From positions 1 through 59,341 of IMG/VR virus record IMGVR_UViG_3300038334_000010: a stretch of 59,341 bases of DNA; one strand, 5' to 3'. The DNA is from a virus. Its lineage: Duplodnaviria > Caudoviricetes. Made by a program: the position numbers and the translations under genes. Within the stretch, counting starts at the first letter, position 1. Each line of letters starts with the position of its first letter. The notes under the pieces were generated by a model. It was given only the letters and a program-made list of their open reading frames with translations, did no database searches and had not been told where the DNA came from. Below, piece after piece: positions 1 through 59,341 of this stretch.

Positions 1-97
1 TTGGCCGGATCGTTGGCGTAGGTGCAGGCGATCCAGCGCCCAACGGCGTCGTGTTCGCCGCGCCAGCTTTTCGGATTGGCCGGATCGTTGGCGTAGG
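1..97. repeat. 97-nt terminal direct repeat (assembly overlap), identical to 59245..59341
   Basis: Base-by-base identity of both ends; the same 97-mer also occurs at 53766..53862. Confidence 0.9.
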
Positions 98-374
98 TGC
101 TGGCGATCACGTTGCCATCGGCGTCGTGTTCGTCGCGCCAGCTATTCGGATGCGCCGGATCGTTGGCGTAGGTGCGGGCGATCACTCGCCCATCGGCGTC
201 GTGTTCGTAGCGCCAGCTTTCCGGATTCGCCGGATCGTTGGCGTAGGTGCGGGCGATCCAGCGCCCAACGGCGTCGTGTTCGTAGCGGTAGCTATTCGGA
301 TGCGCCGGATCGTTGGCGTAGGTGCGGGCGATCCAGCGCCCAACGGCGTCGTGTTCGTAGCGGTAGTAGCTCAT
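1..374 (-). CDS. YD/RHS-like 25-aa tandem-repeat protein, array A, 5' part (continues across the contig junction to 58845; 257 aa and 10 units if joined on the 97-nt overlap)
   Basis: GAGGAG RBS then ATG at 374: [34 protein letters not shown]...; 75-bp period; in frame with ORF 58845..59129 after removing the terminal overlap. Confidence 0.8.
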   Translation of the reverse strand, partial: MSYYRYEHDAVGRWIARTYANDPAHPNSYRYEHDAVGRWIARTYANDPANPESWRYEHDADGRVIARTYANDPAHPNSWRDEHDADGNVIASTYANDPANPKSWRGEHDAVGRWIACTYANDPA

Positions 375-388
375 GTCAATCTCCTCGT

Positions 389-414
389 TAGCGTGTGCAG
401 GCCGGGCGCTACGC
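389..414 (-). repeat. 26-bp boundary element GCGTAGCGCCCGGCCTGCACACRCTA, copy 1 of 5
   Basis: Near-identical copies at 40794..40819(+), 40928..40953(+), 53571..53596(-), 58825..58850(-). Confidence 0.9.
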
Positions 415-554
415 CGGCTACCCCTACTCGCGTTGGGCAGTGCCTACATGTGACGTTGGCTCCGGCAGGGGTGGCGCGAGCAACGTCCCGGACATCACAT
501 GCAAGTACGTGGCTCTGCGTTGTGCGACTTCTCACGCCGCTGCACACGAGACAC

Positions 555-584
555 AGCCTACACCCGTATTTATTGCCTTGTCAA
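555..584 (-). promoter_or_regulatory. sigma70-type promoter driving array A, the single-unit gene and ssb
   Basis: TTGACA (584-579), 18-nt spacer, TAGGCT (560-555); conserved in the inverted copy at 40675..40704. Confidence 0.7.
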
Positions 585-632: not shown

Positions 633-920
633 ATGCAACTACTGGACTACATCAAAAACGCTGAGAACAAGTCAGCGCTTGCATTATCTGTGGGTGTGTC
701 CAAGGGATACTTGTGGCAGATCGCTACCGGCTGGGTCAACGGCAAGGGCTACAAGCAAAAAGCAGCACCTACACTGGCTGTGGCCATCGAGCGTAGCACT
801 GGCGGTATCGTATCATGCGAGGAAACAAGACCCGACCTTGAATGGGTACGTGGGACTACTACAGGCGATCCAATTGCGTATGAAGTCAAGATCGACAGCG
901 GTTCAATATACCCTAGATAA
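633..920 (+). CDS. Cro/YdaS-like HTH regulator
   Basis: KSALALSVGVSKGYLWQIATG...LAVAIERSTGGIVSCEETRPDL pattern. Confidence 0.8.
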   Translation: MQLLDYIKNAENKSALALSVGVSKGYLWQIATGWVNGKGYKQKAAPTLAVAIERSTGGIVSCEETRPDLEWVRGTTTGDPIAYEVKIDSGSIYPR

Positions 921-37000: not shown

Positions 37001-40000
37001 TGGTTGCCGACAACATTCCTACCGCGCTGCGTGCCGAGCAGGTTCTGGCCCACGAAGCCTTTGGCCACTTTGGCGTAGATGGCGTGTTCGGCCGAGCCGA
37101 ATGGGACGGGATCATTGCTCAGGTTGGCAAGATTCGTTCTGGCGAAGCCGTGGCTTCAGGACCGCTACAATCCGCCTTGCAAGCGACCCGCAGACGCTAC
37201 CCGAACGCGAGTCGTGAAACCTTCGCCCGAGAGTTCATCGCTGTCATGGCCGAACGTAACCTGCGAGCCAGCCCATTTGGACGTGTGCTTGCGGCCGTTC
37301 GTGCATTCCTGAGATTCCTTGGCTTCAAGCCCGATTCGTGGGCTGAAGCAGATTTGCGATCTGTCGTTTCCGAAGGAATGCGTAGGGTCCAGAATGCCCA
37401 GAAGGTCCGTGTTGCCACAGTGAACGCAGCAACCGAAGGCGCGTTTTCCGTGATGGACCCGAACGTGGCGTTCAACACGCTGGCTGATGCGCTCGCCCCA
37501 GAACAAGGAATTGTCCGGCGTGTGCTGAACAAGGCATCCGATCTGGCGGCTGTTGGGCTCAAGGCGCTCACGCTTCGCCAGTTGGTTGAGATTGCGTCAG
37601 ACCGCCTGTTGCCAAACGCAAAGCGCTACCAGCGCGCCGTGGATGACATGAAGGTGAGGCGAATCTCATTGCAGAACAAACCTGCCGAATTGGTCAAACG
37701 GTTCGCCGACATGCAATCAGACGCCTATCGGAAGATGCGACAGCAGGGCAAGCAGTTGTCCGACGCTGATGTTATGGCGAACGTAGCCCATGACGCAACG
37801 ATTGCTGGCGCCGATCCAGCTGAAGCGTTTGTAGCTGGCGTGGTGTCGTTGGAGCACGACGGGGCAAAGATCGATGTGACGCCGGAGGCTGTTGGCAAGG
37901 CTGTGTCAGACCTAAAGGCGTTGCTGGAAGACAAGGCTATAGAGGCAGAACGCATCCCGATCATCAAAAGCGACATCGCCAGACTCAAGGCAGCACTTGC
38001 GGCTGAGCCAAAGCGAATTGAAGACCATGCCGCGCTGGTTCCACGGTTCAATGCGATGCCCAAAGCATGGCAGCAGCTTTACAGGGACGTTCGCGATCAG
38101 TATGCGGCGAGAGCCGACGAAACAATGCAGTCCATACTGGAGCGTATTGACCGAATGGACCTGAGCGATAGGGTCAAAAAAGATACCGCCATCCGAGCGC
38201 GGGCACGATTCGAGTCTGCCCGCATTACCGCGCCATACTTCCCGCTGGCTCGGTTCGGCGAGTATTGGGCCAGTCTGACTTCGCCAGAAGGCGAGGCTCA
38301 TTTCATCATGGCCGAGACGAAGACGGAGCGAGACGCTGAGCTTTCCAAGCTGGCCGCCAAGGGGTTCACATTCAACAAGGCGGGTGTCCATTTGGACTCG
38401 ACATTCGCGGCTGACCAGACGAGCGGCACGTTCGTTGCTGACGTAGTGGCGATGCTGGACAAGAACGGGGTGGACTCCAAGGTTCAGGACGAGGTGTACC
38501 AGATGTTCCTGCGCCACTTGCCAGACCTTTCGGCAAGAAAGTCGTTCATCCATCGCAAGAAGATCGCCGGCTACAGTTCCGACATGCTCAGGGCGTTCGC
38601 TGGGCAGATGAACCATTCGTCGTTTCAGTTGGCGCGTCTTGAGTTCAAGGATCGGCTTGATAGTGCGCTGACTGCGGTAAAGGCAGATGCAAAGGCCGCT
38701 AACGCGCTAGGTGCTGATGATGGCGCGCTGGCAGATAGACTGGTGAACGAGCTGAACCGACGCAATGACTGGGTTCTACACCCGACGCACAACAAGTATG
38801 TGCAGGCCCTGCAAAGCGCAAACTTCGTGTTCTATCTTGGACTTGCTCCTGCGTCAGCCATCGTCAATCTGACGCAGAATGCTTTGGTTACATATCCAGC
38901 TTTGGTTGCTCGGTATGGAGTCGTCCAGGCAACACGGCATATGATGACGGCGTTTTGGTCGTCTGTATCCACAGGCGGAAACATTGACACAACGCAGTTG
39001 AACGCTGACGAACAAGCGGCTATGCAGCAATTAGTGCAGCTTGGCGCACGCGATCAAACACTTGGGCATGACCTTGCCGGAATCGGCGACAATGATACAC
39101 GAGACTTTAACCCGCTCGGAAGCAAGGTGATGCACCTTCTTTCGTTCCTGTTCCACAGGGCTGAGGTAATCAACCGCGAATCGACGGGACTGGCTACATA
39201 CCGGTTAGCGCGTGAGGCTGGCAAGGGACACGATGCAGCAGTGGTAGAGGCAGCAGACACGATTTGGAGTACCCATTTCGACTTCTCAAACGAGAATCGT
39301 GCCGCATTCATGCAGTCCGACGCCGGCAAAGTCATCTTTGCGTTCAAGCAGTACAGCCAAGGCATGACGTACTTCCTTGGGCGGGCAGCATTTCAGTCGA
39401 TAAATGGCGCTACGCCTGAAATAAAGCGTGAGGCGCAACGCAGGATAACTGGCACGCTGTTCATGACCGGCGTGTTCTCAGGCGTGCTTGGGATGCCGAC
39501 TATGAGCGTCATTCTCGGCACCATGAACGCCATGGGGGCCGCATTTGGTGACGATGATGATCCGTTCGATGCAGAAACCGAGGTGAGGAACTTCTTTGCG
39601 GACATGCTTGGATTCGGCGGCAAGCTGATCGGCGGGGCCGAAGGAGAGAAGATTGGTCGGTCGGCCGAGAGCGTGCTGTCTCGCGGCCCCATTGAGGCGC
39701 TCACTGGCATAGGCATTGCCAACCGAACCAGCCTTTCCGAGCTATGGTTCCGCGACCCCAACCGCGAACTGGAAGGACGTGCGCTTGGCGACCACATCAT
39801 GGAGCAGGTTGCTGGGCCTATCGGTGCGATTGCCTTAAACCTGTTTCAGTCCGCAAGCACGATCCACGAAGGACTAGATACTGGCAACAACGGAATGATG
39901 CTCCGTGGGCTTGAGTCAGCAATGCCGACGGCCGTCAAGTCGGCCATGAAGGCTCTCCGGTTTGGAGTAGATGGGGCCAATACGCTGCGTGGTGATCCGC

Positions 40001-40368
40001 TGATCGACGACGTGAACTGGCGTGAGGTCCTTTTCCAGTTCACTGGATTCTCACCAGCCCGCATCAACGCCATCTACGACGTTAACAACGCCAAGAAGAA
40101 CGTTGAGGAATCGCTAATCAAGCGCAAGTCAACGCTGATAGACGCCTACGCACTGACACTCAAGTTCAAGGACAGGGATGGCCAGCGCAATGTTGTCGAG
40201 AAGATCAAGAAGTTCAACGCCACCAATCCGACCATCGCAATCACTATGTCTACGATCCGCCGTGCTATGACTTCGAGGCAGAACTTCTCCGAGCGGGCTT
40301 CGGGAGGTGTGGTTGTAAACCCTCGTCTTCAAGGGCGTATTGACGATAAAGTGCGTTTTGGGCAGTGA
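34018..40368 (+). CDS. Giant ejection/polyvalent protein with PLxRFG domain
   Basis: EETLQEGSEQ ejection-type motif, LAHEAFGH zincin-like motif, YFPLARFGEY, FAFKQY. Confidence 0.85.
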   Translation: MLKPFTGKLTLNPDGRPIPVAEQLAAPVAVQQQPVEPQGRTLGRTLADLGLGAASGTVGLVGDVAQAANTVSGGAIDRLIAPAERAVTGRPATGIAQLQQSARQFVNSGLSADITARQQNLQQQTGFVAPAATLLSDPGLAGQFLAEQVPILLALGKTSRSAARSGRSASLENTAKITAQRPVRAGAAERLAERAAEKSSQQSVIAASSVLGGGSAANQASQEVEALPIETLRANPEFAARAAIVGEDKARAELAQGAALRALAIAAPSSAVASRIAAPFESKLFRGQLGGGGLKERLRTIGTGVAREVTEETLQEGSEQLAQNIGVQSADPTVGTFRGVPEAASIGGALGALFGAGGGAFGGAVRSDAVAPQDPASDPAAPDPAIDPAVQAPDAGLTAQPVDIAQQPSDNATQQDDSAAQQVVQEPAKAPLEAAADIATGLAEVDASSGAGPAARAFVDAQNKEVARGGDLVEKAAQAQIKAASDEALKAAKKADTQSAQVAALGEKAGAPPTPAKATSAPAQTSNPATDAAVSAQDQSAQQAAPALPVGEVRKVGKSSITLTPIASDPIVATELTSKGSLAILRAATSPTGAEVNAIAQNNVNAPTGAIGGSGVRINLRGQSVSATQIPTTTDVRQFGVNFVGPQSIESVVVASGVRLVPAARKILTDSFTATVNQNGSTVYTPKAAPPASAPASVGAEVAQANTAPQPVVQASPSQPSVVQAAPAAAQPVKNTPAARKAARIAAEQNVTIASNNDQTNVASANNVLSGRSASSANPNQETVAIQNTASKSAVRRVAASQGKTQASVAPNTTATANTAVQQKAAAAATSADTATVPTEKRKARTAATPVVKDSLTTAKKAKAAPKAKAKKKTIAKTPGAKTATVEATAKIPATAKAAKLPKAKTVAEKVADSVTPPQAPTRTQGASIADPGVKVAPSNAAALNEHIARIVSQWRGDVPSVKVIQSVTDLPLRAQRGNEFNRAEGWYDGATIYLVADNIPTALRAEQVLAHEAFGHFGVDGVFGRAEWDGIIAQVGKIRSGEAVASGPLQSALQATRRRYPNASRETFAREFIAVMAERNLRASPFGRVLAAVRAFLRFLGFKPDSWAEADLRSVVSEGMRRVQNAQKVRVATVNAATEGAFSVMDPNVAFNTLADALAPEQGIVRRVLNKASDLAAVGLKALTLRQLVEIASDRLLPNAKRYQRAVDDMKVRRISLQNKPAELVKRFADMQSDAYRKMRQQGKQLSDADVMANVAHDATIAGADPAEAFVAGVVSLEHDGAKIDVTPEAVGKAVSDLKALLEDKAIEAERIPIIKSDIARLKAALAAEPKRIEDHAALVPRFNAMPKAWQQLYRDVRDQYAARADETMQSILERIDRMDLSDRVKKDTAIRARARFESARITAPYFPLARFGEYWASLTSPEGEAHFIMAETKTERDAELSKLAAKGFTFNKAGVHLDSTFAADQTSGTFVADVVAMLDKNGVDSKVQDEVYQMFLRHLPDLSARKSFIHRKKIAGYSSDMLRAFAGQMNHSSFQLARLEFKDRLDSALTAVKADAKAANALGADDGALADRLVNELNRRNDWVLHPTHNKYVQALQSANFVFYLGLAPASAIVNLTQNALVTYPALVARYGVVQATRHMMTAFWSSVSTGGNIDTTQLNADEQAAMQQLVQLGARDQTLGHDLAGIGDNDTRDFNPLGSKVMHLLSFLFHRAEVINRESTGLATYRLAREAGKGHDAAVVEAADTIWSTHFDFSNENRAAFMQSDAGKVIFAFKQYSQGMTYFLGRAAFQSINGATPEIKREAQRRITGTLFMTGVFSGVLGMPTMSVILGTMNAMGAAFGDDDDPFDAETEVRNFFADMLGFGGKLIGGAEGEKIGRSAESVLSRGPIEALTGIGIANRTSLSELWFRDPNRELEGRALGDHIMEQVAGPIGAIALNLFQSASTIHEGLDTGNNGMMLRGLESAMPTAVKSAMKALRFGVDGANTLRGDPLIDDVNWREVLFQFTGFSPARINAIYDVNNAKKNVEESLIKRKSTLIDAYALTLKFKDRDGQRNVVEKIKKFNATNPTIAITMSTIRRAMTSRQNFSERASGGVVVNPRLQGRIDDKVRFGQ

Positions 40369-40651
40369 ACTGGCGGGGACACTCTGTCAGTAGTTCATCA
40401 CGCACACGCAACCCTAGCGACTTAGCAGCAGCGACAACCTGCCAAGCCCGCCACCACGACATATGTCCATCGGCGCGCCACTTGTGGTACATCCATGCTG
40501 GAACGTGAGGATTGTTGAGCGCCCGCATGAACGCATGTATCCCGCCAGCCTGCGCCTCGCACCGCGACAGGCAAGCGCGCATGGCTTCACGCTCACGCTC
40601 GCCCCAAGCGGGTGATGGCCCCGTGTCTATCCAACGTCGTCTTGTTCTCAT
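40265..40651 (-). CDS. Second Cro/YdaS-like HTH protein, probably leaderless
   Basis: AGGIHAFMRAL..MYHKWRADG..RAWQVVAAA; ATG 6 nt after the -10 box; same position relative to the duplicated promoter as 633..920; 3' end overlaps the giant gene. Confidence 0.55.
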   Translation of the reverse strand: MRTRRRWIDTGPSPAWGEREREAMRACLSRCEAQAGGIHAFMRALNNPHVPAWMYHKWRADGHMSWWRAWQVVAAAKSLGLRVRDELLTECPRQFTAQNALYRQYALEDEGLQPHLPKPARRSSASKS

Positions 40652-40657
40652 GTGCAA

Positions 40658-40726
40658 ATAGTAGCACATACCTATTGACAAGGCAATAGATACGCGTGTA
40701 GGCTGTGTCTCGTGCGCAGCGGCGTG
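40658..40726. promoter_or_regulatory. Inverted second copy of the bidirectional promoter at ~533..601
   Basis: + strand TTGACA(40675)-N18-TAGGCT(40699); - strand TTGCCT-N17-TACTAT; ~65 bp with 3 mismatches to the left copy. Confidence 0.75.
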
Positions 40727-40834
40727 GAAAGCAGACACGCAGCATCAACGTGTACCTGCGGAGTGTTGAACAAGAAGCTACGTAGGATAGCCGGCGTAGC
40801 GCCCGGCATGCACACACTAAACGAGGAGATTGAC

Positions 40835-40933
40835 ATGACAGACTACCGCTACGAACACGACGCAGATGGCACCCTGATCGCCTGCACCTTCGCCAACGAT
40901 CCGGCCAATCCGGAAAGCTGGCGCTACGCGTAG
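40835..40933 (+). CDS. Single-unit YD-like repeat peptide (32 aa)
   Basis: GAGGAGATTGACATG start identical to the arrays; MTDYRYEHDADGTLIACTFANDPANPESWRYA. Confidence 0.75.
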   Translation: MTDYRYEHDADGTLIACTFANDPANPESWRYA

Positions 40934-40963
40934 CGCCAGGCCTGCACACACTGATCAGTCGGA

Positions 40964-43886: not shown

Positions 43887-45022
43887 GTGACGAACGCGAA
43901 TATGTTGTGGAGGAAGTGGCAATGATTGTCATGCCTGCTGGCTCTGCAATCTCTTGCCAAGAAGCTACCGCAGTGCGAATCAGGGACGAGGGGACAGGCC
44001 CGTTCGTCGTAGTTTCGCAGTCCGCGCGTGGCGATGGCTCCGGAATCGCTGTGACCGCCGAGGATTGGCCGGCCATCAAGCAGGCCGTTGAGCAGTTGAT
44101 GAAAGGCTGTCAGCGCATCGAACGAATGCAGGGTGGTCGGGAATGATGTACCTCAACGAGGTCGCGGCAAAAGATGCAGAGCGGGCCGAAATGCGCAAGG
44201 CGATGGCGCGATTCATGGCGAGTGGAGGGCTGATTGAGCGCCCGAAGCCGATAGACGTGCTCGACCCTGGCAGGTACGGCATGACTATGCGTCAGGTGCA
44301 GGGCAAGGAAAAAGAGCAGCGCGCAAAGCGCAAAGTGAGGCGGAAATGACTACGGAAACTGACTTGGTACCGATCAGCGGCGTAGATAAAGCCATCAAAG
44401 TTGTTGGCGAAGTGATGGAGCTACCTGCCGACCAGCATATAGACTATCTTGAAATGCTCGCGCTTGCTGCGACAAAGTACATGCGACTTTTGGGCGGGGA
44501 AGAATACACGCGTGGGTGGCTCACCGCAGCATTGGCCGACCTGGACAATCCGTTGCAATTCGTGCTTAAAAAACATAATTGATGGCTGAAATGAAAATAC
44601 TTAACCCTATGGCATGCGACTGTGAGGACGTGTCAGCAGGTTTGTGGCGCGACAGTTAGAGGATCGAAATGACAGGACGCACGACGAAAACAGCGCCGAA
44701 GAGAATATGGCTACAGGTCAACCCTGATGCGTGGGCCGATGACGATGACAATGTGGAGGATCAGGACGAACCGTTCCCGGCTGAAGATGTAACATGGTGC
44801 CCGCACAGCATAGGCGGGCTTGAGGTCGAATACGTCCGTGCCGATCTTGTGCAGCAGATTGAAGCCACGTTGCGCGACGCACTGACAGAAATACGCGATA
44901 GGATCGTCGATCATCCGGCGTATGACGAACTGACGCTGGAAGAAGAAATCGATACTGGCGGTGACACGGCTGAACTGTCTTATCTCGCCCGAGTCGCCAA
45001 TGAAGCCCTTAACAGAGAATAG
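43883..45022 (+). other. Small hypothetical genes (43883..44146, 44143..44349, 44346..44582, 44669..45022)
   Basis: ATGA-coupled ORFs. Confidence 0.6.
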
Positions 45023-45920
45023 CGCCACTAAAAAGGAGAACAAATTGTTCCAAATACCCGGACACGACATCCCACACTGGGCAACCGATGCGCTGCCAAA
45101 AGGCATCATTCGCAACCTCCCTGAAGACGATTACCACGCAGCTAAGGGCGTGGTGTCCAAATCCCACCTTGACCGCATGGCACTGTGCCCAGCTAAGTAC
45201 CGCTACTACCTGTCACAAGCCGCCGACGAGCGCACTGATGCGATGATCGAAGGTTCTGCGTTCCACTGCATCATCTTGGAGCCGGACGCCTTTGACGGGC
45301 GTTACGTAGAGCTTCCTGACTTTGGCCCAATGCAGTCATCCACCAATCGAAAGCTGCGCGACATGTGGATCACGGACGAGGCGCGCGGGAGGACAGTGCT
45401 CAAGCCCGGAGTGGTCAATAAGTTGTTAGCAATGCGCGACAGCGTGTTTGCTCATGATAGCGCCAGACTGCTGCGAGGATTGGAAACCGAGGTAACTGCG
45501 TTGTGGGTTGAGCCACAAACAGATCTGCCTTGCAAGGCACGCGCAGATGGAATCAGCTTGCTCGATGGCGTGTTCGTTGACTTGAAAAAGACGGCTACGG
45601 CAGACCCCAGGGCATGGCTAAGATCGGCTGCGAAGTTTCGCTACCATGTGCAAGATGCGTTCTATTCGCGGGCGTTTGGCGAAAATGGCTGCGATATTAA
45701 GAACTTTGTATTCGTGGTGGTTGAGGACGAGCCGCCATACGTAACCACATTCGTACAGCTATCCGATGATGACCGGCTGGCTGGTGAAATGCTCTACATG
45801 CGCGAACTGACGCAGATTCGCAAGGCGTGGGACGAAATGTACTTCCCCGGATACGACAATGGCCGCGTGATGGATATGCGGCTGCCTTCGTATGCGACCA
45901 ATGAGGTCATCAATGCGTGA
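45000..45920 (+). CDS. RecE/exonuclease VIII-like PD-(D/E)XK nuclease
   Basis: YHAAKGVVSKSHLD, GSAFHCIILEP, CKARAD..DLKKT..YHVQDAFY. Confidence 0.88.
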   Translation: MKPLTENSATKKENKLFQIPGHDIPHWATDALPKGIIRNLPEDDYHAAKGVVSKSHLDRMALCPAKYRYYLSQAADERTDAMIEGSAFHCIILEPDAFDGRYVELPDFGPMQSSTNRKLRDMWITDEARGRTVLKPGVVNKLLAMRDSVFAHDSARLLRGLETEVTALWVEPQTDLPCKARADGISLLDGVFVDLKKTATADPRAWLRSAAKFRYHVQDAFYSRAFGENGCDIKNFVFVVVEDEPPYVTTFVQLSDDDRLAGEMLYMRELTQIRKAWDEMYFPGYDNGRVMDMRLPSYATNEVINA

Positions 45921-46128
45921 GCGGAACTGGACATGCGAAGTTTCATATGATGGCAAGGAGCCATTCTTGTTCTACTCGCCAGCGTTCTACGTATCGGCTG
46001 AAGGAGAGCTACATGCAGAACGACTGCTACAAGATTTGGTCAACACAGAGTTCGCGAAGATAAGCCACCACCCACCTCCGAAAGTGTTATCAGTGCTTCC
46101 TGGAAGGCTAGAGTTTCATAAGGAGTAA
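45913..46128 (+). CDS. Hypothetical protein
   Basis: Coupled between the nuclease and annealase. Confidence 0.5.
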   Translation: MRERNWTCEVSYDGKEPFLFYSPAFYVSAEGELHAERLLQDLVNTEFAKISHHPPPKVLSVLPGRLEFHKE

Positions 46129-46134
46129 ATCGAA

Positions 46135-47022
46135 ATGGCAAAAGACAAGCAAGTAACCGTAGCTCCGGAAAAGGACACAGCAATCACCGCAGTCGAGCCC
46201 AAGAACTACGCCATGGCCGGTGTATGGGCAGACCGGCAATCGTTCGAGATGGCGCAGCGTATGGCGACGGCGTTGGCAAACTCCACGCTTGTTCCGCTTG
46301 AGTACCAATCGCATCCTGTTCGCAATGGCAGTATCGAGGACAACCGAAACGCAGTTAGCAACTGCCTGATCGCGATTGACATGGCGGCCAACCTACGTGT
46401 ATCGCCGCTGATCGTGATGCAGAACGTGGACGTGATCCATGGCCGGCCGGGCCTGCGCGGAAAGTTCCTGCTTGCGCTGCTGAATAGCTGCGGCCAGTTC
46501 GACAGGATCAAGTTTGAGTGGAAGGGACAGAAGGGCGACCGTGACTGGGGTTGCCGAGCCTATTCGCGCGACACCAAGAGCGGCGACGTGCTGTATGGCG
46601 CGTGGGTTGACATGGTTATGGTCAATGCCGAGGGCTGGAGCAAGAAGGGCGGCTCCAAGTGGGGCACCATGCCTGAGCAAATGTTCATGTACCGGGCAGG
46701 CGCGTTCTTTGAGAGAGTCCACGCGCCCAATCTTTCAATGGGCATGTACACCGCCGAAGAACTGATAGACGTGATCGACGACCGGCCGAAGCGTACGAGT
46801 GGCGCCGACCTTAGCAAGCGCATTGAGGCAGAGATGGAGGTTGTCGATCCTCCAACTGTAACCGAGTTTGAAGGCGCTGTTCAGTTAGATGAATCTGGCG
46901 AATCTGGATCGCAGACCACGGTGGTTGTTGCATCCAAGGCTGAGCCGATACCCGTGGCAGACAGCAAAAACACGGTCTACACTGAGGTCGAGGGTGAAAG
47001 CGACGAGTTGGTGCTTGAATGA
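46135..47022 (+). CDS. RecT/Red-beta-like single-strand annealing protein
   Basis: NCLIAIDMA..SPLIVMQNVDVIHGRP, WGTMPEQMFMYRA, GMYTAEE; acidic tail; next to RecE-like gene. Confidence 0.8.
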   Translation: MAKDKQVTVAPEKDTAITAVEPKNYAMAGVWADRQSFEMAQRMATALANSTLVPLEYQSHPVRNGSIEDNRNAVSNCLIAIDMAANLRVSPLIVMQNVDVIHGRPGLRGKFLLALLNSCGQFDRIKFEWKGQKGDRDWGCRAYSRDTKSGDVLYGAWVDMVMVNAEGWSKKGGSKWGTMPEQMFMYRAGAFFERVHAPNLSMGMYTAEELIDVIDDRPKRTSGADLSKRIEAEMEVVDPPTVTEFEGAVQLDESGESGSQTTVVVASKAEPIPVADSKNTVYTEVEGESDELVLE

Positions 47023-50547: not shown

Positions 50548-52305
50548 ATCGACCTCCCCGGACCAATTTCTTGAACCGTAGCGAATATTGGTTTTCCATC
50601 GCGAATCGGCCGCACCAGAGTTTGCGAAATCAGGTACAGGACGCGTTCGACGGGCGTTTCATTCGTATCCGTTACGATCACCGTTGCCGATGACGCACCT
50701 GAAACAGCAGCCCATCCATCACTGTCGGGACGTAGAAAATGTGTTCTCATTTAAGCATTCCCATTATGAATCCTGCGAGCATTGACAGTGCCATGATTAC
50801 AGCCCATCGCAAACATGATTTAACCATTTTGCCCTCCTGCTAACCATACGCGTCCAGCCGCGACCATCTCAGCTTCTGCTGCGCTATTCCAGCGCGAATG
50901 CGCCAGTTCAGCCCTGACGCGCGCCATGTCATAGCACCATGCCACGGCGTCACGGGCATGACCTGGCTCTAGCGCGTCCATTGCCTCGGCCAATTCGAGC
51001 TCCGCTGCCCTGTCAGACGATAGCCGACGCCACGCGACACGCTCAGCAAGCGAAGCGATGGCTAGCTCAATTCGTAGTGTCCATAGTGGCTTCATGGCCG
51101 GCCATCCCGATACAACCTGCACCCCATCCGCTCGCGTGCAATGTCAGCGGACGCCCGGCGCATGGCGCGCTGGTTTTTTATCTGGTGCCGCCGCATGGCT
51201 CGGATGATCGGCACAGAGATGGCAATGCCTGCGATGATGCACAGAGCGAGAATTGCGTATTCCATTTCATTACTCCTATTTGGCAATCGGCCACGGTACG
51301 CGATAATGATGCCGGATCAGGTGTTCCGGCATGTCGATTGTGTTGCGGTTGATCGCGTCGGCAGCCTCAATGGCGTCTTCGACGAAATCGTGGCAGGAAT
51401 ACTCGGCCCCGAGCACCGTAACGACTGCACCGCAGTGGCTTGGGAACTCAACCTCGGCCACTGGCATGGCCGCACGGTACTCGATAGCTCGCATTCGCTA
51501 CTCCTCGTCGCGGTCAGTGTAATAAACCGCAGCGCGAGCTTCGGCAACGTCAGGTATGCCGAATAGCCCGTTATCCTCAGCCTGGAAACGCTCCGCCCGC
51601 AACTCACGGATTCGTCTCACCCTCGCCTGCATCTCAGCAGCGTAGCCAGCAGCATCGCTGGCTTGGTCGTGTCCATATTGTAGGCGGTTGGCGGTCATGA
51701 GGTTCTCCCTTTGTATGAGCAATGTTATTTGCTGGCGGCAAGAATCGCCAGCGCCGACCCAGTTATTGCAATTATCGGCAAACTACACACGCATGCAAAT
51801 TGCTAAAAATAGGACAATACGAAAGATCATTGCGATAAATACGACAAAAATAGAACAATCGCAGCGGAAAACGACAATTTGCCGAATATAATGCGGTTTG
51901 AGGTGCTTGGGTGGGGTCTTTTCCATACGGTTCATGCCCCGACCGTATGGTGCATCTCGCGCGCGATAGCGTACTAATTGTCATGTATGCCGCCTATTTC
52001 ATGCCCAATCGTTCAATGCACTGAACGATTGGTATGGTTTGTGCCGCATGGATATACCTTTCCGTTCAGGACGCTTCGAGCCACGCCAGCGCATCGGCCG
52101 CCAGTGCTGCGGCTTCCGGCCCGTCATCATGCTCTGGCACGTCGGAATCAACGATGTTTCCATCGTCATCGAACTCGAACCAGTAGGCCCGGCTGCTGCG
52201 GAGCTTGCTGCCCGGCCACTGCGCATTAAACAGCGCAACGCCAGCGCGCGATATGCGGACCTTGCGCGTCCCGACGGCATCAAAGCATTGTTCAGTTGTG
52301 TTCAT
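50544..52305 (-). other. Small minus-strand hypothetical genes (50544..50750, 50820..51095, 51092..51265, 51276..51494, 51498..51698, 52066..52305)
   Basis: Purine-rich RBS before most ATGs; head-to-tail packing. Confidence 0.6.
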
Positions 52306-52314
52306 GTTGGCCCC

Positions 52315-52704
52315 TCAGTAGATGGCTACGCCACGGGTGTATTCGCTCCTAATGTCCGAATCGCCAAGGACGTCCAGCGGCACGGCGTACAGTGCGCAGC
52401 CTCGCGGGTCGCCCTGGACGTACAGGATCACGTCCGGGTGTTGGGACTGAATAGCTGCGATGCGCCGCCGCGCGCCGGCTTCGCGGTCGGCCACTCGACT
52501 AAGCCGCTCACCTGTGCGCGGTGAGTGCCAGTACGGCGCCTCGGTATTCTCGTCGCGCTGTATCACGCCGTTGCATTCGTGCTCATTCCATCGTTGCAGC
52601 GTCATCGACGCACGGCGCAGGGTTTCGGCCTCGGCGGCGCTGAATCCGAGTCTGCGCAGGGCGTTCTCTTGCGCGTTGAGTCTCATTGCTTCGTTGCGGT
52701 TCAT
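52315..52704 (-). CDS. Hypothetical protein (QGDPRG motif)
   Basis: GGAG RBS directly after the 57-nt element; MNRNEAMRL...YVQGDPRGCALY. Confidence 0.7.
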   Translation of the reverse strand: MNRNEAMRLNAQENALRRLGFSAAEAETLRRASMTLQRWNEHECNGVIQRDENTEAPYWHSPRTGERLSRVADREAGARRRIAAIQSQHPDVILYVQGDPRGCALYAVPLDVLGDSDIRSEYTRGVAIY

Positions 52705-52720
52705 GTTTGTAACTCCATTC

Positions 52721-52777
52721 TGGCACCATCGCCACCGCTGCACCCTCGCGGGAGGATGCAGGGATAGGTCGGTGCTA
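52721..52777 (-). repeat. 57-nt intergenic hairpin element, copy 1 of 3
   Basis: TAGCACCGACCTATCC-CTGCATCCTC-CCGC-GAGGGTGCAG-CGGTGGCGATGGTGCCA; other copies at 53477..53533 and 54261..54317. Confidence 0.88.
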
Positions 52778-52793
52778 CGCGGTAGCGCCCTGA

Positions 52794-53468
52794 TTAGGCT
52801 TCGAGTGCCCATGCTGGAATAGCGGCGGGAACCGTTACTTCACTCTCGTGCCACGGCATCGTGACACCGACGAAGCCATAGACGCCATTGAGCAAGACAA
52901 GTGTTCCACGTGTGCCCTGCTGCCTTGCAACGGGCGCGGCTTTCGTACCCAGCAGCTTGCCGGCCTTAACAAAGACGGCTAAGTCCTCAAAATTGAGACT
53001 CGCGGGAGCAATGGCGTCGTCGTCAATCGTCGGAAGCACCGCTTGCCACTGCGGGAATCTGGCGTTAAGCGTCACGCCCGCAACGCTTGTCTCGCCACAC
53101 GTCAGGCTCACCGAGCGCACTGCGCACAGAATATCGCCCACGCGCACCGTAATATCCGCTTCATTGCGGGCCTTGAGTGACGCAATCAGCGCAGCCGGAA
53201 TGATCGCAGTGACGCTCGGCCCTTGAATGTCACCATCGGTGACGCGGAAAGCGCCGAGAACCCTACCGTTAGTTGCGATCAGACGCACGGTGTTCGCGGT
53301 GCTGTTCACTTCCAGGCATACGCCATTCAGTCCCGTACGGATGTCATTCTTAGCCGCGAACAGTGCGGCAGCCTTGAGTGTGCCCATCGGCACCGTGACG
53401 CTTGTATGTGTCAGCTCGGCTTCCGTCGCGGCTTCGGCGGTTGCGGTTGCGGTTGTCATTTTATTCAC
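52794..53468 (-). CDS. DNA polymerase III beta-clamp-like protein (partial fold)
   Basis: AAKNDIRTGLNGVCLE..LIATNGRVL..RFPQWQAVLP echo DnaN motifs. Confidence 0.65.
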   Translation of the reverse strand: MNKMTTATATAEAATEAELTHTSVTVPMGTLKAAALFAAKNDIRTGLNGVCLEVNSTANTVRLIATNGRVLGAFRVTDGDIQGPSVTAIIPAALIASLKARNEADITVRVGDILCAVRSVSLTCGETSVAGVTLNARFPQWQAVLPTIDDDAIAPASLNFEDLAVFVKAGKLLGTKAAPVARQQGTRGTLVLLNGVYGFVGVTMPWHESEVTVPAAIPAWALEA

Positions 53469-53476
53469 TCCTTGTT

Positions 53477-53533
53477 TGGCACTATCGCCACCGCTGCCGA
53501 CTCGCTGGAATCGGCAGGAGTAGCTCGGTGTTA
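53477..53533 (-). repeat. 57-nt intergenic hairpin element, copy 2 (compensatory stem changes)
   Basis: Stem CTGCCGATTC-CAGC-GAGTCGGCAG. Confidence 0.85.
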
Positions 53534-53590
53534 GGCGATCATGAAGGTTTCCCCTTTGTATAGTCAGTCGTAGTGTGTGCAGGCCGGGCG

Positions 53591-54244
53591 CTACGCTTCG
53601 CGCCAGCTATCCGGATTCGCCGGATCGTTGGCGTAGGTGCAGGCGATCAGGCGGCCATCTGCGTCGTGTTCGTCGCGCCAGCTTTCCGGATTCGCCGGAT
53701 CGTTGGCGTAGGTGCGGGCGATCAGGCGGCCATCTGCGTCGCGTTCGCCGCGCCAGCTTTTCGGATTGGCCGGATCGTTGGCGTAGGTGCAGGCGATCCA
53801 GCGCCCAACGGCGTCGTGTTCGCCGCGCCAGCTTTTCGGATTGGCCGGATCGTTGGCGTAGGTGCAGGCGATCCAGCGCCCAACGGCGTCGTGTTCGTAG
53901 CGCCAGCTATCCGGATTCGCCGGATCGTTGGCGTAGGTGCGGGCGATCAGGCGGCCAACGGCGTCGTGTTCGTCGCGCCAGCTATCCGGATTCGCCGGAT
54001 CGTTGGCGTAGGTGCAGGCGATCCAGCGCCCAACGGCGTCGTGTTCGCCGCGCCAGCTATTCGGATGCGCCGGATCGTTGGCGTAGGTGCGGGCGATCAC
54101 TCGCCCATCGGCGTCGTGTTCGTCGCGCCAGCTATCCGGATTCGCCGGATCGTTGGCGTAGGTGCGGGCGATCAGGTTGCCATCTGCGTCGTGTTCGTCG
54201 CGGTAGTCGCTCATGTCAATCTCCTCTTCGCGTTTCGTGGTCAT
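53591..54244 (-). CDS. YD/RHS-like 25-aa tandem-repeat protein, array B (8 units)
   Basis: 8 x 75 bp; two in-frame ATGs with RBS (54244, 54214); ends SWREA* like array A. Confidence 0.85.
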   Translation of the reverse strand: MTTKREEEIDMSDYRDEHDADGNLIARTYANDPANPDSWRDEHDADGRVIARTYANDPAHPNSWRGEHDAVGRWIACTYANDPANPDSWRDEHDAVGRLIARTYANDPANPDSWRYEHDAVGRWIACTYANDPANPKSWRGEHDAVGRWIACTYANDPANPKSWRGERDADGRLIARTYANDPANPESWRDEHDADGRLIACTYANDPANPDSWREA

Positions 54245-54260
54245 GTCTGTTTCTCCTGTC

Positions 54261-54317
54261 TGGCACTATCGCCACCGCTGCACCCTCACCGGAGGATGCA
54301 GGGATAGGTCGGTGCTA
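54261..54317 (-). repeat. 57-nt intergenic hairpin element, copy 3
   Basis: Starts on the TAG of 54315..54536 and ends at the next RBS. Confidence 0.88.
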
Positions 54318-54536
54318 CTTCAACGCTTCGGCGAGTTCGTCAGCGCTCATGGCTGCGATGGAAGCGTCCGGCACCAGACCAAGCCGCGCCATTTCGTCTC
54401 GTATCTCGCGCTCATACTGGCGCACCCAAACGGCGCGCATCGCCCGCTCTTGAGCGCTGGTAGCAGCGGCAAAGCGGGCGCGTTCGCGACTTAGGCCAGC
54501 CTCAAGCGCAGTTAGATGATCTGTGGTTGAGGTCAT
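54315..54536 (-). CDS. Hypothetical protein
   Basis: HLTALEAGLSRERARF..VWVRQYEREI..MSADELAEAL. Confidence 0.7.
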   Translation of the reverse strand: MTSTTDHLTALEAGLSRERARFAAATSAQERAMRAVWVRQYEREIRDEMARLGLVPDASIAAMSADELAEALK

Positions 54537-54537
54537 G

Positions 54538-54750
54538 TCATAGCCCCTTCAGCGCTGCGCGTGCATCGTCGATGCCGGCAAACGCGTTAAGCTGCCCGCC
54601 AGACACAACCAGCACACTGTCGTCGGCAAACGTGTAGAGCGTCGCTTCGTGCTCCAAATCCTGATCGATTATGTCGGTTACTGATTGTGCGCGCGTGTCA
54701 GCGTCGTTAGCGTTTGCGCTGATGTGCAGGATTTCGCTTGCAGTTGACAT
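54538..54750 (-). CDS. Small acidic hypothetical protein
   Basis: GGAG RBS then ATG at 54750; first gene after the sigma54 motif. Confidence 0.7.
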   Translation of the reverse strand: MSTASEILHISANANDADTRAQSVTDIIDQDLEHEATLYTFADDSVLVVSGGQLNAFAGIDDARAALKGL

Positions 54751-54794
54751 GTTGCTCTCCAGTCCCCAGCGGTTGCCGGGCTCACTAAATACTA

Positions 54795-54810
54795 TGCAAA
54801 CCCCGTGCCA
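54795..54810 (-). promoter_or_regulatory. sigma54 -24/-12 promoter
   Basis: TGGCAC-GGGGT-TTGCA, exact consensus and spacing, 45 nt upstream of the first ATG. Confidence 0.75.
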
Positions 54811-54826
54811 ACCGCGCATATTCTCG

Positions 54827-54838
54827 TAAGTCATTGAT
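54827..54838. promoter_or_regulatory. IHF-like site
   Basis: Minus strand ATCAATGACTTA matches ATCAA-N4-TTR. Confidence 0.55.
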
Positions 54839-54856
54839 CCGGCAGCAAACACAGCT

Positions 54857-54872
54857 TGGCACGATACTTGCC
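54857..54872 (+). promoter_or_regulatory. Second, divergent sigma54 -24/-12 motif
   Basis: TGGCAC-GATAC-TTGCC. Confidence 0.6.
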
Positions 54873-54883
54873 CGGACAATAAT

Positions 54884-54925
54884 TGTCACATTCTGACGTG
54901 ACGCATTGCGTCACATTCTGACGTG
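54884..54925. promoter_or_regulatory. Tandem palindromic enhancer-like sites
   Basis: GTCACATTCTGACGTG twice (54885, 54910), each GTCA-N5-TGAC, bridged by the GTGACGCATTGCGTCAC palindrome. Confidence 0.55.
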
Positions 54926-55387
54926 GCCGATGGCAAGGCGTGGTAATCAAGCACAACGATGGCAAGGCTACGGCTAGCCGCTGGTCGGCGCTGGTCGGCG
55001 TTGCGCGCTAATCACGGCATGGATGGGATGGGCTGGGCTGGCCGGGGAGAGCGAAGGCAGAAGCAAGAGCGAAGCCAGAGCATGCAGCCAACAGCGTGTT
55101 GATAGAAGCAAAAGCAAGATCAAAAGGGGACCCAAGCAAAAGCGAAACCCCCATGAAAAGCAACAGCGCCTATCTGTATATATACCCCCACCCCCAACTC
55201 CCAGCATTTTCAGCTTGTGCTATGCTTTCGTTATGTTGCGTTAGGATTTGTTAGGTTGTGTTATTTTTTTTGTTTTGGGTTTTTGCTTATACCCCCGTGG
55301 TTGTGCTTCATCGGGTTGTGGTGGAAGCGGTAGCATTTACCTACTGAACGTTGTACCATGTTTGCTGTTCTATTCTCGGGGCATGGC

Positions 55388-56446
55388 ATGTCATGGCTTA
55401 TCAGCAGGGTGTTGATGGAGGACTTCGAGAGCTCGCGTTGTTCGCAGGGGCTGGTGGCGGTGTCCTCGGCGGGAAGCTACTCGGGTGGCGAACCGTGTGC
55501 GCCGTCGAGCTTGAGCCCTACGCCGCAAGCGTACTTGTCGCCCGACAGAATGACGGCATTCTGTCGCCTTTCCCGGTTTGGGATAACGTTTGCACCTTTG
55601 AAGGCAGACCGTGGCGAGGCCGTGTTGACGTGGTATCTGGCGGGTTTCCTTGCCAGGACATCAGCGCAGCCGGAAGTGGTGCTGGGATCGATGGAGCACG
55701 AAGCGGATTGTGGAGCGAGTTTGCCCGCATCATTGGCGAGGTTCGACCGCGATACGCTTTCGTGGAAAACAGCCCAATGCTCGTTACTCGTGGACTCGGG
55801 CGAGTGCTTGGTGATTTGGCCGCGCTCGGGTATGACTGTCGATGGACGGTGCTGGGAGCTGCCGATGTTGGGGCGCCGCACAGGCGGGACAGATTCTGGC
55901 TCATTGCTACCGACGCCACTGGCGAACAGCCATACAGGGGCGGGCCATGGGCCGAACAAGACCGGTTCGCCGAATCTGCAAACGGTGGTAAAACTTTGGC
56001 CGACGCCCAGAACAACGGGCCTAGATGGCGGGAGCAACAGTCGCAAGGCGGCGAAAGCGCGGGGCATGTGGCCGACGCCGAAATCCAACGATGCCGAAAA
56101 GCGCGGGAACTTCGACGCATCGCACCCGAGGAACGGGCTTCCGGCAGCGGTGAAGCGCATCCCGACGCCGACTGCCAGCGATTGGAAGGGGAGCAGCAAA
56201 CCAGGCCAGCGGCGAGGTCAACTGACGTATCCGAATATGGGTGTGATCGAGGCTGGCGGCCAACTGAACCCGGAGTGGGTGGAATTGTTGATGGGTTGGC
56301 CGAAGGGCTGGACGCGCCTTGGGCCGATGGATGGGAAGATGGAACCGCAAGGGTCGCTAATGGAATTGCCGCCCGTGCGCACCGCCTCAAAGCCATCGGC
56401 AACGGCCAAGTGCCACAATGCGCCGCAGAAGCATGGAGGATCCTGA
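55388..56446 (+). CDS. Overlapping-frame methyltransferase partner chain (TRD and motif IX-like)
   Basis: Open for >1 kb; repeated (W/L)PTP motifs and GQLNPEWVELLMGWPKGWT; true start uncertain. Confidence 0.7.
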   Translation: MSWLISRVLMEDFESSRCSQGLVAVSSAGSYSGGEPCAPSSLSPTPQAYLSPDRMTAFCRLSRFGITFAPLKADRGEAVLTWYLAGFLARTSAQPEVVLGSMEHEADCGASLPASLARFDRDTLSWKTAQCSLLVDSGECLVIWPRSGMTVDGRCWELPMLGRRTGGTDSGSLLPTPLANSHTGAGHGPNKTGSPNLQTVVKLWPTPRTTGLDGGSNSRKAAKARGMWPTPKSNDAEKRGNFDASHPRNGLPAAVKRIPTPTASDWKGSSKPGQRRGQLTYPNMGVIEAGGQLNPEWVELLMGWPKGWTRLGPMDGKMEPQGSLMELPPVRTASKPSATAKCHNAPQKHGGS

Positions 56447-58249: not shown

Positions 58250-58669
58250 TCAAAAAGGAATATCGTCGTCAATTTCGTCGTAATCTCTGGTAGGCGTTTG
58301 GTTGTCGTTGGGCGGTTTGGCTGCTACCTTGCCGTCGCTGCCACCCAGCATCTGAAGCTCGCTGGCGATGATGCCGGTGCTGTAGCGCTCAACCCCATCC
58401 TTGCCCGTGTACTTGTCCGTGCGCAAGCTGCCCTCGATATATACCTGGCGTCCTTTCTTGAGGTATTCGCCGGCGATTTCAGCTAGTTTTCCGAAGAATG
58501 TTACTCGGTGCCATTCAGTGCGCTCAGCCTTCTCGCCCTTCTTGTCCTTCCACGTTTCCTTGGTAGCAACACTGATTGTGGCAATCGCTGAACCGTTCTG
58601 AGCGTACTTCACCTCAGGGTCGTTTCCAAGATTTCCAATAATGGTGACGCGATTTATTCCTCTGCTCAC
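58250..58669 (-). CDS. ssb: Single-stranded DNA-binding protein
   Basis: GTG start with GAGGAG RBS; [29 protein letters not shown]. Confidence 0.95.
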
Positions 58670-58691
58670 TAGGCTACTCCTCGTGTGATAT

Positions 58692-58808
58692 TTATATGGC
58701 AAACTTAGCGCTGGCTTTTCGCCAGCTACGCGGATTCGCCGGATCGTTGGCATAGGTTCGGGCGATCACGCGACCATCTGCGTCGTATTCGTCGCGATAG
58801 TTATTCAT
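58692..58808 (-). CDS. Diverged single-unit YD-like repeat peptide (38 aa)
   Basis: GGGAG RBS; [38 protein letters not shown]; below the ORF-track cutoff. Confidence 0.75.
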
Positions 58809-58844
58809 GTTGACTCCCATTCGTTAGTATGTGCAGGCCGGGCG

Positions 58845-59341
58845 CTACGCTTCGCGCCAGCTATTCGGATGCGCCGGATCGTTGGCGTAGGTGCAGGCGA
58901 TCACGTTGCCATCGACGTCGTGTTCGTAGCGCCAGCTTTCCGGATTGGCCGGATCGTTGGCGTAGGTGCGGGCGATCACGTTGCCATCGGCGTCGTGTTC
59001 GCCGCGCCAGCTTTCCGGATTGGCCGGATCGTTGGCGTAGGTGCGGGCGATCACGTTGCCATCGGCGTCGTGTTCGCCGCGCCAGCTTTTCGGATTGGCC
59101 GGATCGTTGGCGAAGGTGCGGGCGATCACTCGCCCAACGGCGTCGTGTTCGTAGCGGTAGCTATTCGGATGCGCCGGATCGTTGGCGTAGGTGCAGGCGA
59201 TCCAGCGCCCAACGGCGTCGTGTTCGTAGCGCCAGCTTTCCGGATTGGCCGGATCGTTGGCGTAGGTGCAGGCGATCCAGCGCCCAACGGCGTCGTGTTC
59301 GCCGCGCCAGCTTTTCGGATTGGCCGGATCGTTGGCGTAGG
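58845..59341 (-). CDS. YD/RHS-like repeat protein, array A, 3' part
   Basis: 75-bp units; open frame to the contig end; ends SWREA*. Confidence 0.8.
   Translation of the reverse strand, partial: YANDPANPKSWRGEHDAVGRWIACTYANDPANPESWRYEHDAVGRWIACTYANDPAHPNSYRYEHDAVGRVIARTFANDPANPKSWRGEHDADGNVIARTYANDPANPESWRGEHDADGNVIARTYANDPANPESWRYEHDVDGNVIACTYANDPAHPNSWREA

Follow-up and report, generated by a model that had tools for sequence, protein, structure and literature searches.

Small YD/Rhs-type β-hairpin repeat genes in a tailed phage and the probable concerted evolution of their 75-nt units

YD/Rhs-type repeats are familiar from large toxin cocoons and teneurins, whose walls they form. In the shells of the T6SS Rhs proteins (PDB: 8uxt, 8qja, 7q97), of the TcB/TcC toxins (PDB: 4o9x, 4igl) and of teneurin, each repeat supplies one β-hairpin to a continuous antiparallel sheet, and the proteins concerned run to more than 1000 residues. 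Elongated hairpin sheets are also formed by the choline-binding repeats. A different kind of tandem repeat is found in the TAL effectors, whose helical units of 33-35 residues form a superhelix around DNA, with one hypervariable residue pair reading one DNA base. Phage proteins that vary at a few positions are further known from the diversity-generating retroelements, with their reverse transcriptase, template/variable repeat pair and adenine-specific pattern of change.

Here we describe two repeat genes, A and B, of a phage in which the YD/Rhs hairpin makes up practically the whole of a very small cytoplasmic protein. The window under study is the entire virus record IMGVR_UViG_3300038334_000010 (59,341 nt, 55 percent GC), which IMG/VR places in its class of records with direct terminal repeats, and which is contained in 4 public runs, all from one study and labelled groundwater metagenome. 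The two products share with the Rhs, Tc and teneurin shells matches above cut-off to PF05593 and TIGR01643, a predicted continuous antiparallel sheet with one hairpin per repeat, and their best structural matches. They differ from these shells in comprising only 8-10 hairpins (217 and 257 aa), in a strict 25-residue period with a proline-rich loop, in forming no closed cocoon, and in being encoded in phage early-gene blocks; no N-terminal plug, autoprotease motif, toxin domain or signal peptide was found in either product, and Pfam reported no other domain over cut-off. Engineered OspA and viral MORN-type proteins, both among the fold matches, have a comparable elongated hairpin sheet without a hydrophobic core layer, but the likeness is one of fold only, as gene A has no Pfam match at E<=1 to MORN or cell-wall-binding repeat families, the choline-binding repeats included.

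With the TAL repeats the two arrays have in common near-identical tandem units, variation at fixed positions and signs of recombination. However, their units are predicted 25-residue β-hairpins rather than helical DNA-wrapping repeats, and the roughly eight variable positions are found in the turn, in either strand and in the loop. Nothing indicates nucleic-acid binding, and the TALE-like specificity code entertained in a first-pass annotation of this DNA finds no support. The closest relatives are small phage YD-repeat ORFs (P0003, P0004, P0012, L010, L027, G001), which share the 25-residue unit, a length of 38-231 aa, the frequent occurrence as adjacent paralogues and a phage origin. Most of these contain old, diverged units, whereas long, homogenised and shuffled arrays are seen only here and in one second phage (G001). 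A literature search by title and abstract returned nothing on small phage YD-repeat proteins, and one paper on the large APSE toxin.

The repeat genes and their genomic setting

Tandem Repeats Finder delineated three arrays with a 75-nt period (Table 1), which belong to two genes. Gene A carries its units in frame, and gene B is divided between the two ends of the record; when these ends are joined through their 97-nt overlap, gene B encodes 257 aa with 10 units, a count that is uncertain because the join falls inside the repeat. Outside the units, each gene encodes just 5-15 residues on the N-terminal side and two on the C-terminal side; these last two residues and the stop codon are the same in gene B as in gene A. 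The first-pass annotation had assigned 18 units to 53591..54214; this total is right for the two genes together (8+10), but only 8 of the units lie there, and the total itself depends on the end join, as the 97 nt through which the ends are joined are themselves array sequence, with a further copy in array A. Genes A and B are paralogues, and two one-unit mini-genes, C and D, are their relatives; gene C is also one of the proteins in our homologue set (P0046), and gene D lies on the strand opposite to the other three.

Table 1. Positions of the repeat genes and of associated features in the 59,341-nt record
Feature	Position	Strand	Remarks
Gene A	53591..54244	-	217 aa from ATG 54244 or 207 aa from inner ATG 54214
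Gene A repeat block	53600-54199	-	8 in-frame units of 25 residues
Gene B, 5' part	1..374	-	start codon at 374
Gene B, 3' part	58845..59341	-	runs off contig end; 6 whole units; RHS_repeat 45.5 bits
Gene C, one-unit mini-gene	58692..58820	-	42 aa (38 aa from inner Met); directly upstream of SSB
Gene D, one-unit mini-gene	40835..40933	+	32 aa; just after the 2116-aa DarB-like gene
75-nt-period array	53598-54202		8.1 copies
75-nt-period array	4-362		4.8 copies
75-nt-period array	58854-59341		6.5 copies
Flank element F (25 nt incl. stop codon)	53572..53596	-	downstream of gene A
Element F copy	390-414	-	alignment/motif scan
Element F copy	40794-40818	+	alignment/motif scan
Element F copy	40928-40952	+	alignment/motif scan
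Element F copy	58826-58850	-	alignment/motif scan
Conserved RBS + start region (27 nt)	54200..54226	-	gene A (inner ATG 54214)
RBS + start region copy	360-386	-	gene B
RBS + start region copy	40823-40849	+	gene D
~90-nt upstream repeat	~430-580	-	upstream of gene B
~90-nt upstream repeat	40650-40790	+	upstream of gene D
~55-nt intercistronic element	within 52700-52800	-
~55-nt intercistronic element	53469-53560	-
~55-nt intercistronic element	54245-54330	-
Repressor-like gene	633-920		PHROG
DarB-like gene	34018-40368	+	2116 aa
ExoVIII-like and RecT-like genes	44961..47022	+	PHROG 412 at 4.6e-68, PHROG 561 at 4.6e-53
Gene for 224-aa protein	52794-53468	-	directly downstream of gene A
Promoter-like sites and 16-nt motif pair	54856-54925		between gene A block and methylase gene
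SSB ORF, longest version	58250-58753	-

The record is that of a tailed phage: among the 35 larger ORFs scanned against PHROG were a terminase, a portal and a major head protein, along with matches to the repressor-like gene, an O-like replication gene and a DnaB-like helicase. Genes for an SSB and for a C5 cytosine methylase are also present, as is a clamp-like gene, and all three share a block with gene A. Gene B starts 260 nt from the divergently oriented repressor-like gene, and its array adjoins this regulator and the replication genes (O-like, DnaB). The ExoVIII-like and RecT-like pair is part of this genomic context and a possible engine of repeat shuffling, its action on the arrays being putative; the same 35 ORFs yielded no recombinase beyond this pair and a resolvase-like gene. 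Around gene A, no Rfam family was found within 52000-55400, and PADLOC gave only sub-threshold matches for gene A and none for 9 neighbouring genes. An AcrF2 match of an ORF next to gene A was weak (E 0.066, below cut-off) and is not relied on.

Several neighbours of the repeat genes deserve mention in their own right. The C-terminal 700 residues of the 2116-aa protein, right behind whose gene the one-unit gene D is situated, match a DarB-like antirestriction PHROG (1.3e-145), and the product is probably an injected polyvalent protein. For the 224-aa protein encoded immediately downstream of gene A, the PHROG that is hit (2.6e-21) bears the name RusA-like resolvase, and there are also weak matches to profiles of sliding clamps (PHROG 947 at 1.8e-6; Pfam DNA_pol3_beta_2 below cut-off); the family name is at odds with this hint about the fold. 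The longest version of the SSB ORF begins inside the unit of gene C in another frame; since the Pfam SSB domain is not entered until residue 33, translation of SSB probably starts some 29 codons further on, just past the gene C stop. Between the gene A block and the methylase gene there are promoter-like sites in both directions, beside which two direct copies of a 16-nt motif look like an operator pair.

The repeat genes also share flanking sequences. A 25-nt element (F) recurs five times at <=1 mismatch against 0 expected; it is placed upstream of genes B and D and downstream of A, B and D, the copy downstream of gene B being the one that stands upstream of gene C. As the element begins with the last codons of the genes and their stop, the upstream copies look like scars of the end of a former neighbouring gene. 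A 27-nt region with the ribosome-binding site and start codon is common to A, B and D (3 matches at <=2 mismatches against 0 expected). Hence, the genes and their flanks have been duplicated as a whole to several places in the genome. A segment of about 90 nt ahead of gene B has a second copy, on the opposite strand, ahead of gene D; the pair resembles a promoter region that was duplicated, although a scan with the sigma-70 consensus gave no site in either copy. A further conserved element of about 55 nt, extending from the stop codon of the preceding gene to the ribosome-binding site of the next, precedes three consecutive genes including A. It folds as a hairpin with 19 predicted pairs, of which 3 are kept despite changes on both sides among the three copies; it has no Rfam match, and may be a site of processing, antitermination or translational control.

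Fold and relatives of the repeat unit

Gene A matches the Pfam RHS_repeat family (PF05593, cut-off 22) with 46.8 bits (E 3.5e-12), and the two pieces of gene B do so with 44.4 and 45.5 bits; the NCBIfam YD repeat model TIGR01643 is marginal, at 17.7 bits against a cut-off of 15.8 (E 0.0039). An AlphaFold2 model of the gene A product, for which the input was a 43-row alignment of small homologues, was obtained with a pLDDT of 89.6 and a pTM of 0.77. It has 16 strands arranged as 8 β-hairpins, one per unit: in each unit strand 1 comprises positions 24, 25, 1, 2 and 3, a tight turn follows at 4-8, strand 2 at 9-14, and a loop at 15-23 that is proline-rich (D-P-x-x-P-x-S-W). Foldseek comparisons of this model with the PDB placed 13 Rhs cores at the top (E 3e-10 to 6e-8; 8uxt at 3.3e-10, 8qja, 8cp6, 7q97), followed by teneurin, TcB/TcC and engineered OspA single-layer sheets, with 51 matches at E<=0.001; among viral models the matches were to MORN-type hairpin-repeat proteins. 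The A and B products can thus be described, with the model as guide, as small, signal-less, acidic proteins consisting almost wholly of predicted YD/Rhs-type β-hairpin repeats. A DNA-mimic reading of their acidity was considered and dropped, as it finds no family-wide support, the net charge in the family ranging from -26 to +8.

When the variable positions of the unit ("slots", see below) are laid on the predicted hairpin by strand alternation rather than by coordinates, slots 1, 9 and 24 would face one side of the sheet and slot 12 the other, slots 6 and 8 would fall in the hairpin turn, and slots 20 and 22 in the long loop at the opposite edge. The slots would accordingly be spread over both faces and both edges of the sheet, with no single face standing out.

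A phmmer search against 1.84 billion representatives recovered 179 matches at E<=0.001. Among the 150 matches listed of these 179 are 39 small proteins of 38-231 aa, one of which is gene C; those small homologues that were read have 27-77 percent identity with the 25-residue unit conserved, and the remaining matches listed are giant Rhs proteins at about 23-40 percent identity. A word-indexed search added two further relatives (P0001 and P0002), the latter having its repeats fused to a MazG-like domain, itself below the Pfam cut-off; in two other proteins (P0006 and P0053) a common C-terminal domain is fused to YD repeats. All 10 homologue clusters that were looked up are unnamed metagenome proteins, and purely viral "RHS repeat" clusters in the ESM Atlas (54-118 members, scores 0.85-0.86) provide a lead only. 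On longer contigs, two loci (L010, L027) each have two adjacent small genes with old, diverged units. A search of metagenome contigs gave 7 loci, including a close relative (L010) and a classical large Rhs protein (L011), with L012-L016 left out; genome contigs yielded 4, none of them close, of which three have 30-34 percent identity and the fourth a single unit. No locus was confirmed in a related-locus search of viral contigs with gene A, alignment A1 and P0003 as queries. In a phage collection, 20 kb of the record had no match by megablast, and gene A had one weak match by tblastn, in a tail-fibre gene. One further candidate from motif scans (L018/L025) proved to be a chance match.

A second phage came from a motif scan of viral contigs, namely an unrelated record (G001) of 39,013 nt, classed as linear in IMG/VR, with ends that overlap by 105 nt inside its own array. 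When these are joined, a 10-unit gene lies directly after Cro/CI-type regulator genes, and is followed by a 3-unit gene and a pentapeptide-repeat gene. Its 13 units have 36 variable nt, 151 of 351 site pairs incompatible by the four-gamete test, Rm>=5 and a pN/pS of 0.54, and its most variable positions are 1, 9, 12 and 22, all of them slots in the first phage. Units are far more alike within each of the two phages than between them, which is a mark of concerted evolution. As a separate observation, the C-terminal 60 residues of the pentapeptide-repeat protein (L017 602-1273, +) weakly resemble the domain common to P0053 and P0006 (E 2e-4), and pentapeptide-repeat and YD-repeat scaffolds may thus carry one common module.

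Variation, recombination and selection among the units

The first-pass annotation had viewed the units as combinatorial mosaics of a few alleles at fixed slots, with an invariant ANDPA and mostly non-synonymous differences, and had attributed them to unequal crossover or gene conversion. The alleles that it listed are all present in the 18 units: Y/D/G at position 1; AD/AV at positions 5-6, to which one VD must be added; RW/RL/RV/NV/NL at positions 8-9; R/C at position 12, with one S; NPD/NPE/NPK/HPN at positions 20-22; and W/Y at position 24. Outside these slots there are the singletons H3R and Y14F. ANDPA is invariant in 18/18 units, and 17 of the 18 units are distinct (B8 = B9). In each unit 20 of the 75 nt are variable, distributed as 6, 8 and 6 over codon positions 1, 2 and 3, and, as read from the codon table, 16 of these 20 take part in residue changes and 4 are purely synonymous. 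The mosaic is real, but the proposition that variation is almost confined to them carries less than it seems to: 12 of the 25 codons are unchanged, which under uniform placement has p=0.38, and fixed slots alone are not beyond chance for recently diverged copies.

Each slot has 2-4 alleles, and every allele is always encoded by the same codon, as expected if few old mutations are being shuffled. At codons 8, 9, 22 and 24 either 2-3 base changes are needed or 3-4 alleles are held. The changes are not adenine-specific, the A allele being absent at 7 and the T allele at 12 of the 20 variable sites.

The recombination signal was borne out by several tests. With 17 informative sites over the 18 units, 73 of 136 site pairs fail the four-gamete test, and the Hudson-Kaplan minimum is Rm>=7 events inside a 75-nt unit; near sites are more compatible than far ones (PHI-like permutation p=0.014). 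When the slots are grouped into four blocks (position 1; positions 5-9; position 12; positions 19-24), no departure from random assortment is seen in any of the six block pairs (p 0.07 to 0.84), in agreement with the earlier view that they reassort largely independently. There is no allele pool specific to either array: units differ by 7.89 nt within arrays and 8.03 nt between them (difference 0.13, p=0.31), and a stretch of 104 nt is identical between A and B. Adjacent units are only slightly more alike than the average pair (6.81 versus 7.96 differences, p=0.09). The four-gamete failures, with random assortment within and between the arrays, support the shaping of the arrays by unequal crossover or gene conversion.

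Selection was gauged by Nei-Gojobori counting over all 153 unit pairs, for which the overall pN/pS is 1.04. This figure conceals two regimes. The eight slot codons have pN 0.30 and pS 0.084, a contrast that is post hoc and biased because the slots were chosen for being variable, while the other 17 codons have pN 0.009 and pS 0.110 (pN/pS 0.08). As pN lies far below pS in the latter, the frame is translated, with purifying selection acting strongly on its core; the high pN of the slots would also fit diversifying selection. In the same non-slot codons, comparison with the arrays gives pS 0.35 and pN 0.03 for gene C, and pS 0.17 and pN 0.027 for gene D. With differences that are mainly synonymous, the one-unit genes are older copies under continuing constraint as proteins, and arrays A and B are younger or in the process of being homogenised. 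Distant homologues, too, keep the residue motif with different codons.

The slots can also be set against the family at large, for which we built a unit profile from 36 near-full ungapped units of 22 of 40 small proteins; P0046 was excluded, and so were 86 of 122 domain hits, these being incomplete or gapped. Positional entropy in our units correlates with that of the family (Spearman rho 0.67, p=2e-4); positions 9, 6, 1 and 22, where the family varies most, are without exception slots here, and R/C at position 12 is found again across the family, as is H/N/D at position 20. Such a coincidence of slots with family-variable positions agrees equally well with tolerant surface positions and with a specificity code.

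Readings of the mosaic and their meaning

We assign a probability of about 0.7 to the reading that A and B are small YD/Rhs hairpin-repeat genes in concerted evolution, with shuffling of alleles and purifying selection on the core. It draws on the build of the repeats, on their match to a known family, on the signs of recombination, on the pattern of selection and on the recurrence in a second phage, all of which were observed here. In the mechanism that we propose, concerted evolution would keep the 75-nt units near-identical, a small pool of alleles would be shuffled by recurrent unequal crossover and gene conversion, both inside arrays A and B and between them, probably by way of host recombination or the phage's ExoVIII/RecT, and selection would purge residue changes except at the positions that the whole family tolerates.

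One alternative locates the mosaic, wholly or in part, in the assembly, where a short-read path through near-identical units or co-occurring variants might have produced chimeric units, a wrong order or collapsed copies. Both ends of the contig do lie in the array: the first 97 nt of the record equal the last 97 nt, and this overlap is part of the 104-nt stretch also present in array A. The "direct terminal repeat" that marks the record as complete is hence a piece of the tandem array, and the ends of G001 overlap in the same manner; end repeats that fall in tandem arrays are weak evidence for termini or copy number. The DNA comes from a metagenome, and the array also interrupts the k=31 contigs available for the 4 runs, in which the "other letters" are paralogous units. 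As the short-read assembly of the record likewise broke there, unit order and copy number are uncertain, above all in gene B. Yet the longest exact repeats within A and within B are 80 and 86 nt, both under the 97-nt overlap, and if the assembler's word size was about 97, the 75-nt units fit in one word or read, so that the combinations within units would be read-supported. Contigs from that one study reproduce the flanks and, of the array itself, just three pieces of 61-86 nt, which are found without a mismatch in 3-4 runs; the same architecture is present in an independent sample (G001), and an artefact would not generate a 12-fold synonymous excess in the non-slot codons. We regard an assembly origin of the mosaic as unlikely. 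A far less probable alternative, indeed one close to refuted, gives the 75-nt repeats a role at the DNA level, for example as iterons, protein-binding sites or recombination hot spots, and takes the open frame to be incidental. The position of array B beside the repressor-like and replication genes would suit such elements, and all six frames are open across the arrays; against this, the non-slot pN/pS of 0.08 pertains to the minus-strand frame, homologues at 27-69 percent identity from both high-GC and low-GC phages keep the peptide motif, three genes have the conserved ribosome-binding site and ATG, and the frame folds with high confidence.

The remaining alternatives accept the proteins and ask more of their variation. 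The slots might contact a ligand and their variety be adaptive, each unit or inter-unit pocket reading an element of a target in a modular code that recombination re-tunes, in loose analogy to TAL effectors or choline-binding repeats. The excess of pN over pS at the slots, the multiple changes or alleles at codons 8, 9, 22 and 24, the family-wide variability of the same positions (with 1, 9, 12 and 22 varying most in the second phage) and the aromatic or charged residues among the alleles (W/L/V, Y/D/G, R/C, H/N) speak for such a code. However, the slots were picked because they vary, the overall pN/pS is 1.04 here and 0.54 in G001, the clustering is within that of uniform placement, and the slots would occupy both faces and both edges of the sheet; we consider such a code doubtful. 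A programmed diversity generator, working by DGR-like mutagenesis or by site-specific cassette shuffling and lacking a recognisable reverse transcriptase, would account for diversity at few positions of otherwise identical units and for cassette-like genes flanked by the five copies of element F. The first-pass annotation had raised such a generator, but its dedicated form finds no support: a search for reverse transcriptase (PF00078) was negative for the record while positive in 3/14 control genomes, there is neither a template/variable repeat pair nor an adenine bias, slots are limited to 2-4 alleles with one codon each, the upstream element F copies resemble gene-end scars, the scanned ORFs offer only the ExoVIII/RecT pair and the resolvase-like gene as recombinases, and ordinary homologous recombination is enough for the mosaic. 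We deem it highly improbable. Between these two lies a more elaborate idea, in which the arrays, with the one-unit genes as spare cassettes, would constitute a recombination-driven recognition system: slots 1, 6, 8, 9, 12, 20, 22 and 24 would line binding sites on or between hairpins, and RecT/ExoVIII-aided shuffling of the shared pool of alleles would maintain many binding variants in the population. This is a long shot; if true, the proteins could be, for example, decoys or inhibitors that track a variable host defence protein, and the phage would possess a diversity generator without reverse transcriptase built on a miniature Rhs sheet.

Returning to concerted evolution with allele shuffling as the preferred reading, the function of the proteins can be approached through their shape and position. 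They would be elongated single-layer β-sheet binding scaffolds deployed in early host-takeover gene blocks; the ribbon-like predicted fold and the early, regulator-adjacent location of the genes point to an early-expressed binding or decoy role, which we put forward tentatively.

In sum, what emerges is a little-known small-protein form of a known repeat, with no sign of a dedicated diversity machine. Here the YD/Rhs hairpin, otherwise a building block of large shells, is found on its own in proteins of phage early-gene blocks, often as adjacent paralogues. Two phages with homogenised arrays, in which variable positions are in linkage equilibrium over 10-30 nt, offer a compact natural case of concerted evolution with allele shuffling, and genes of the A/B type are candidates among the phage early proteins that interfere with the host.
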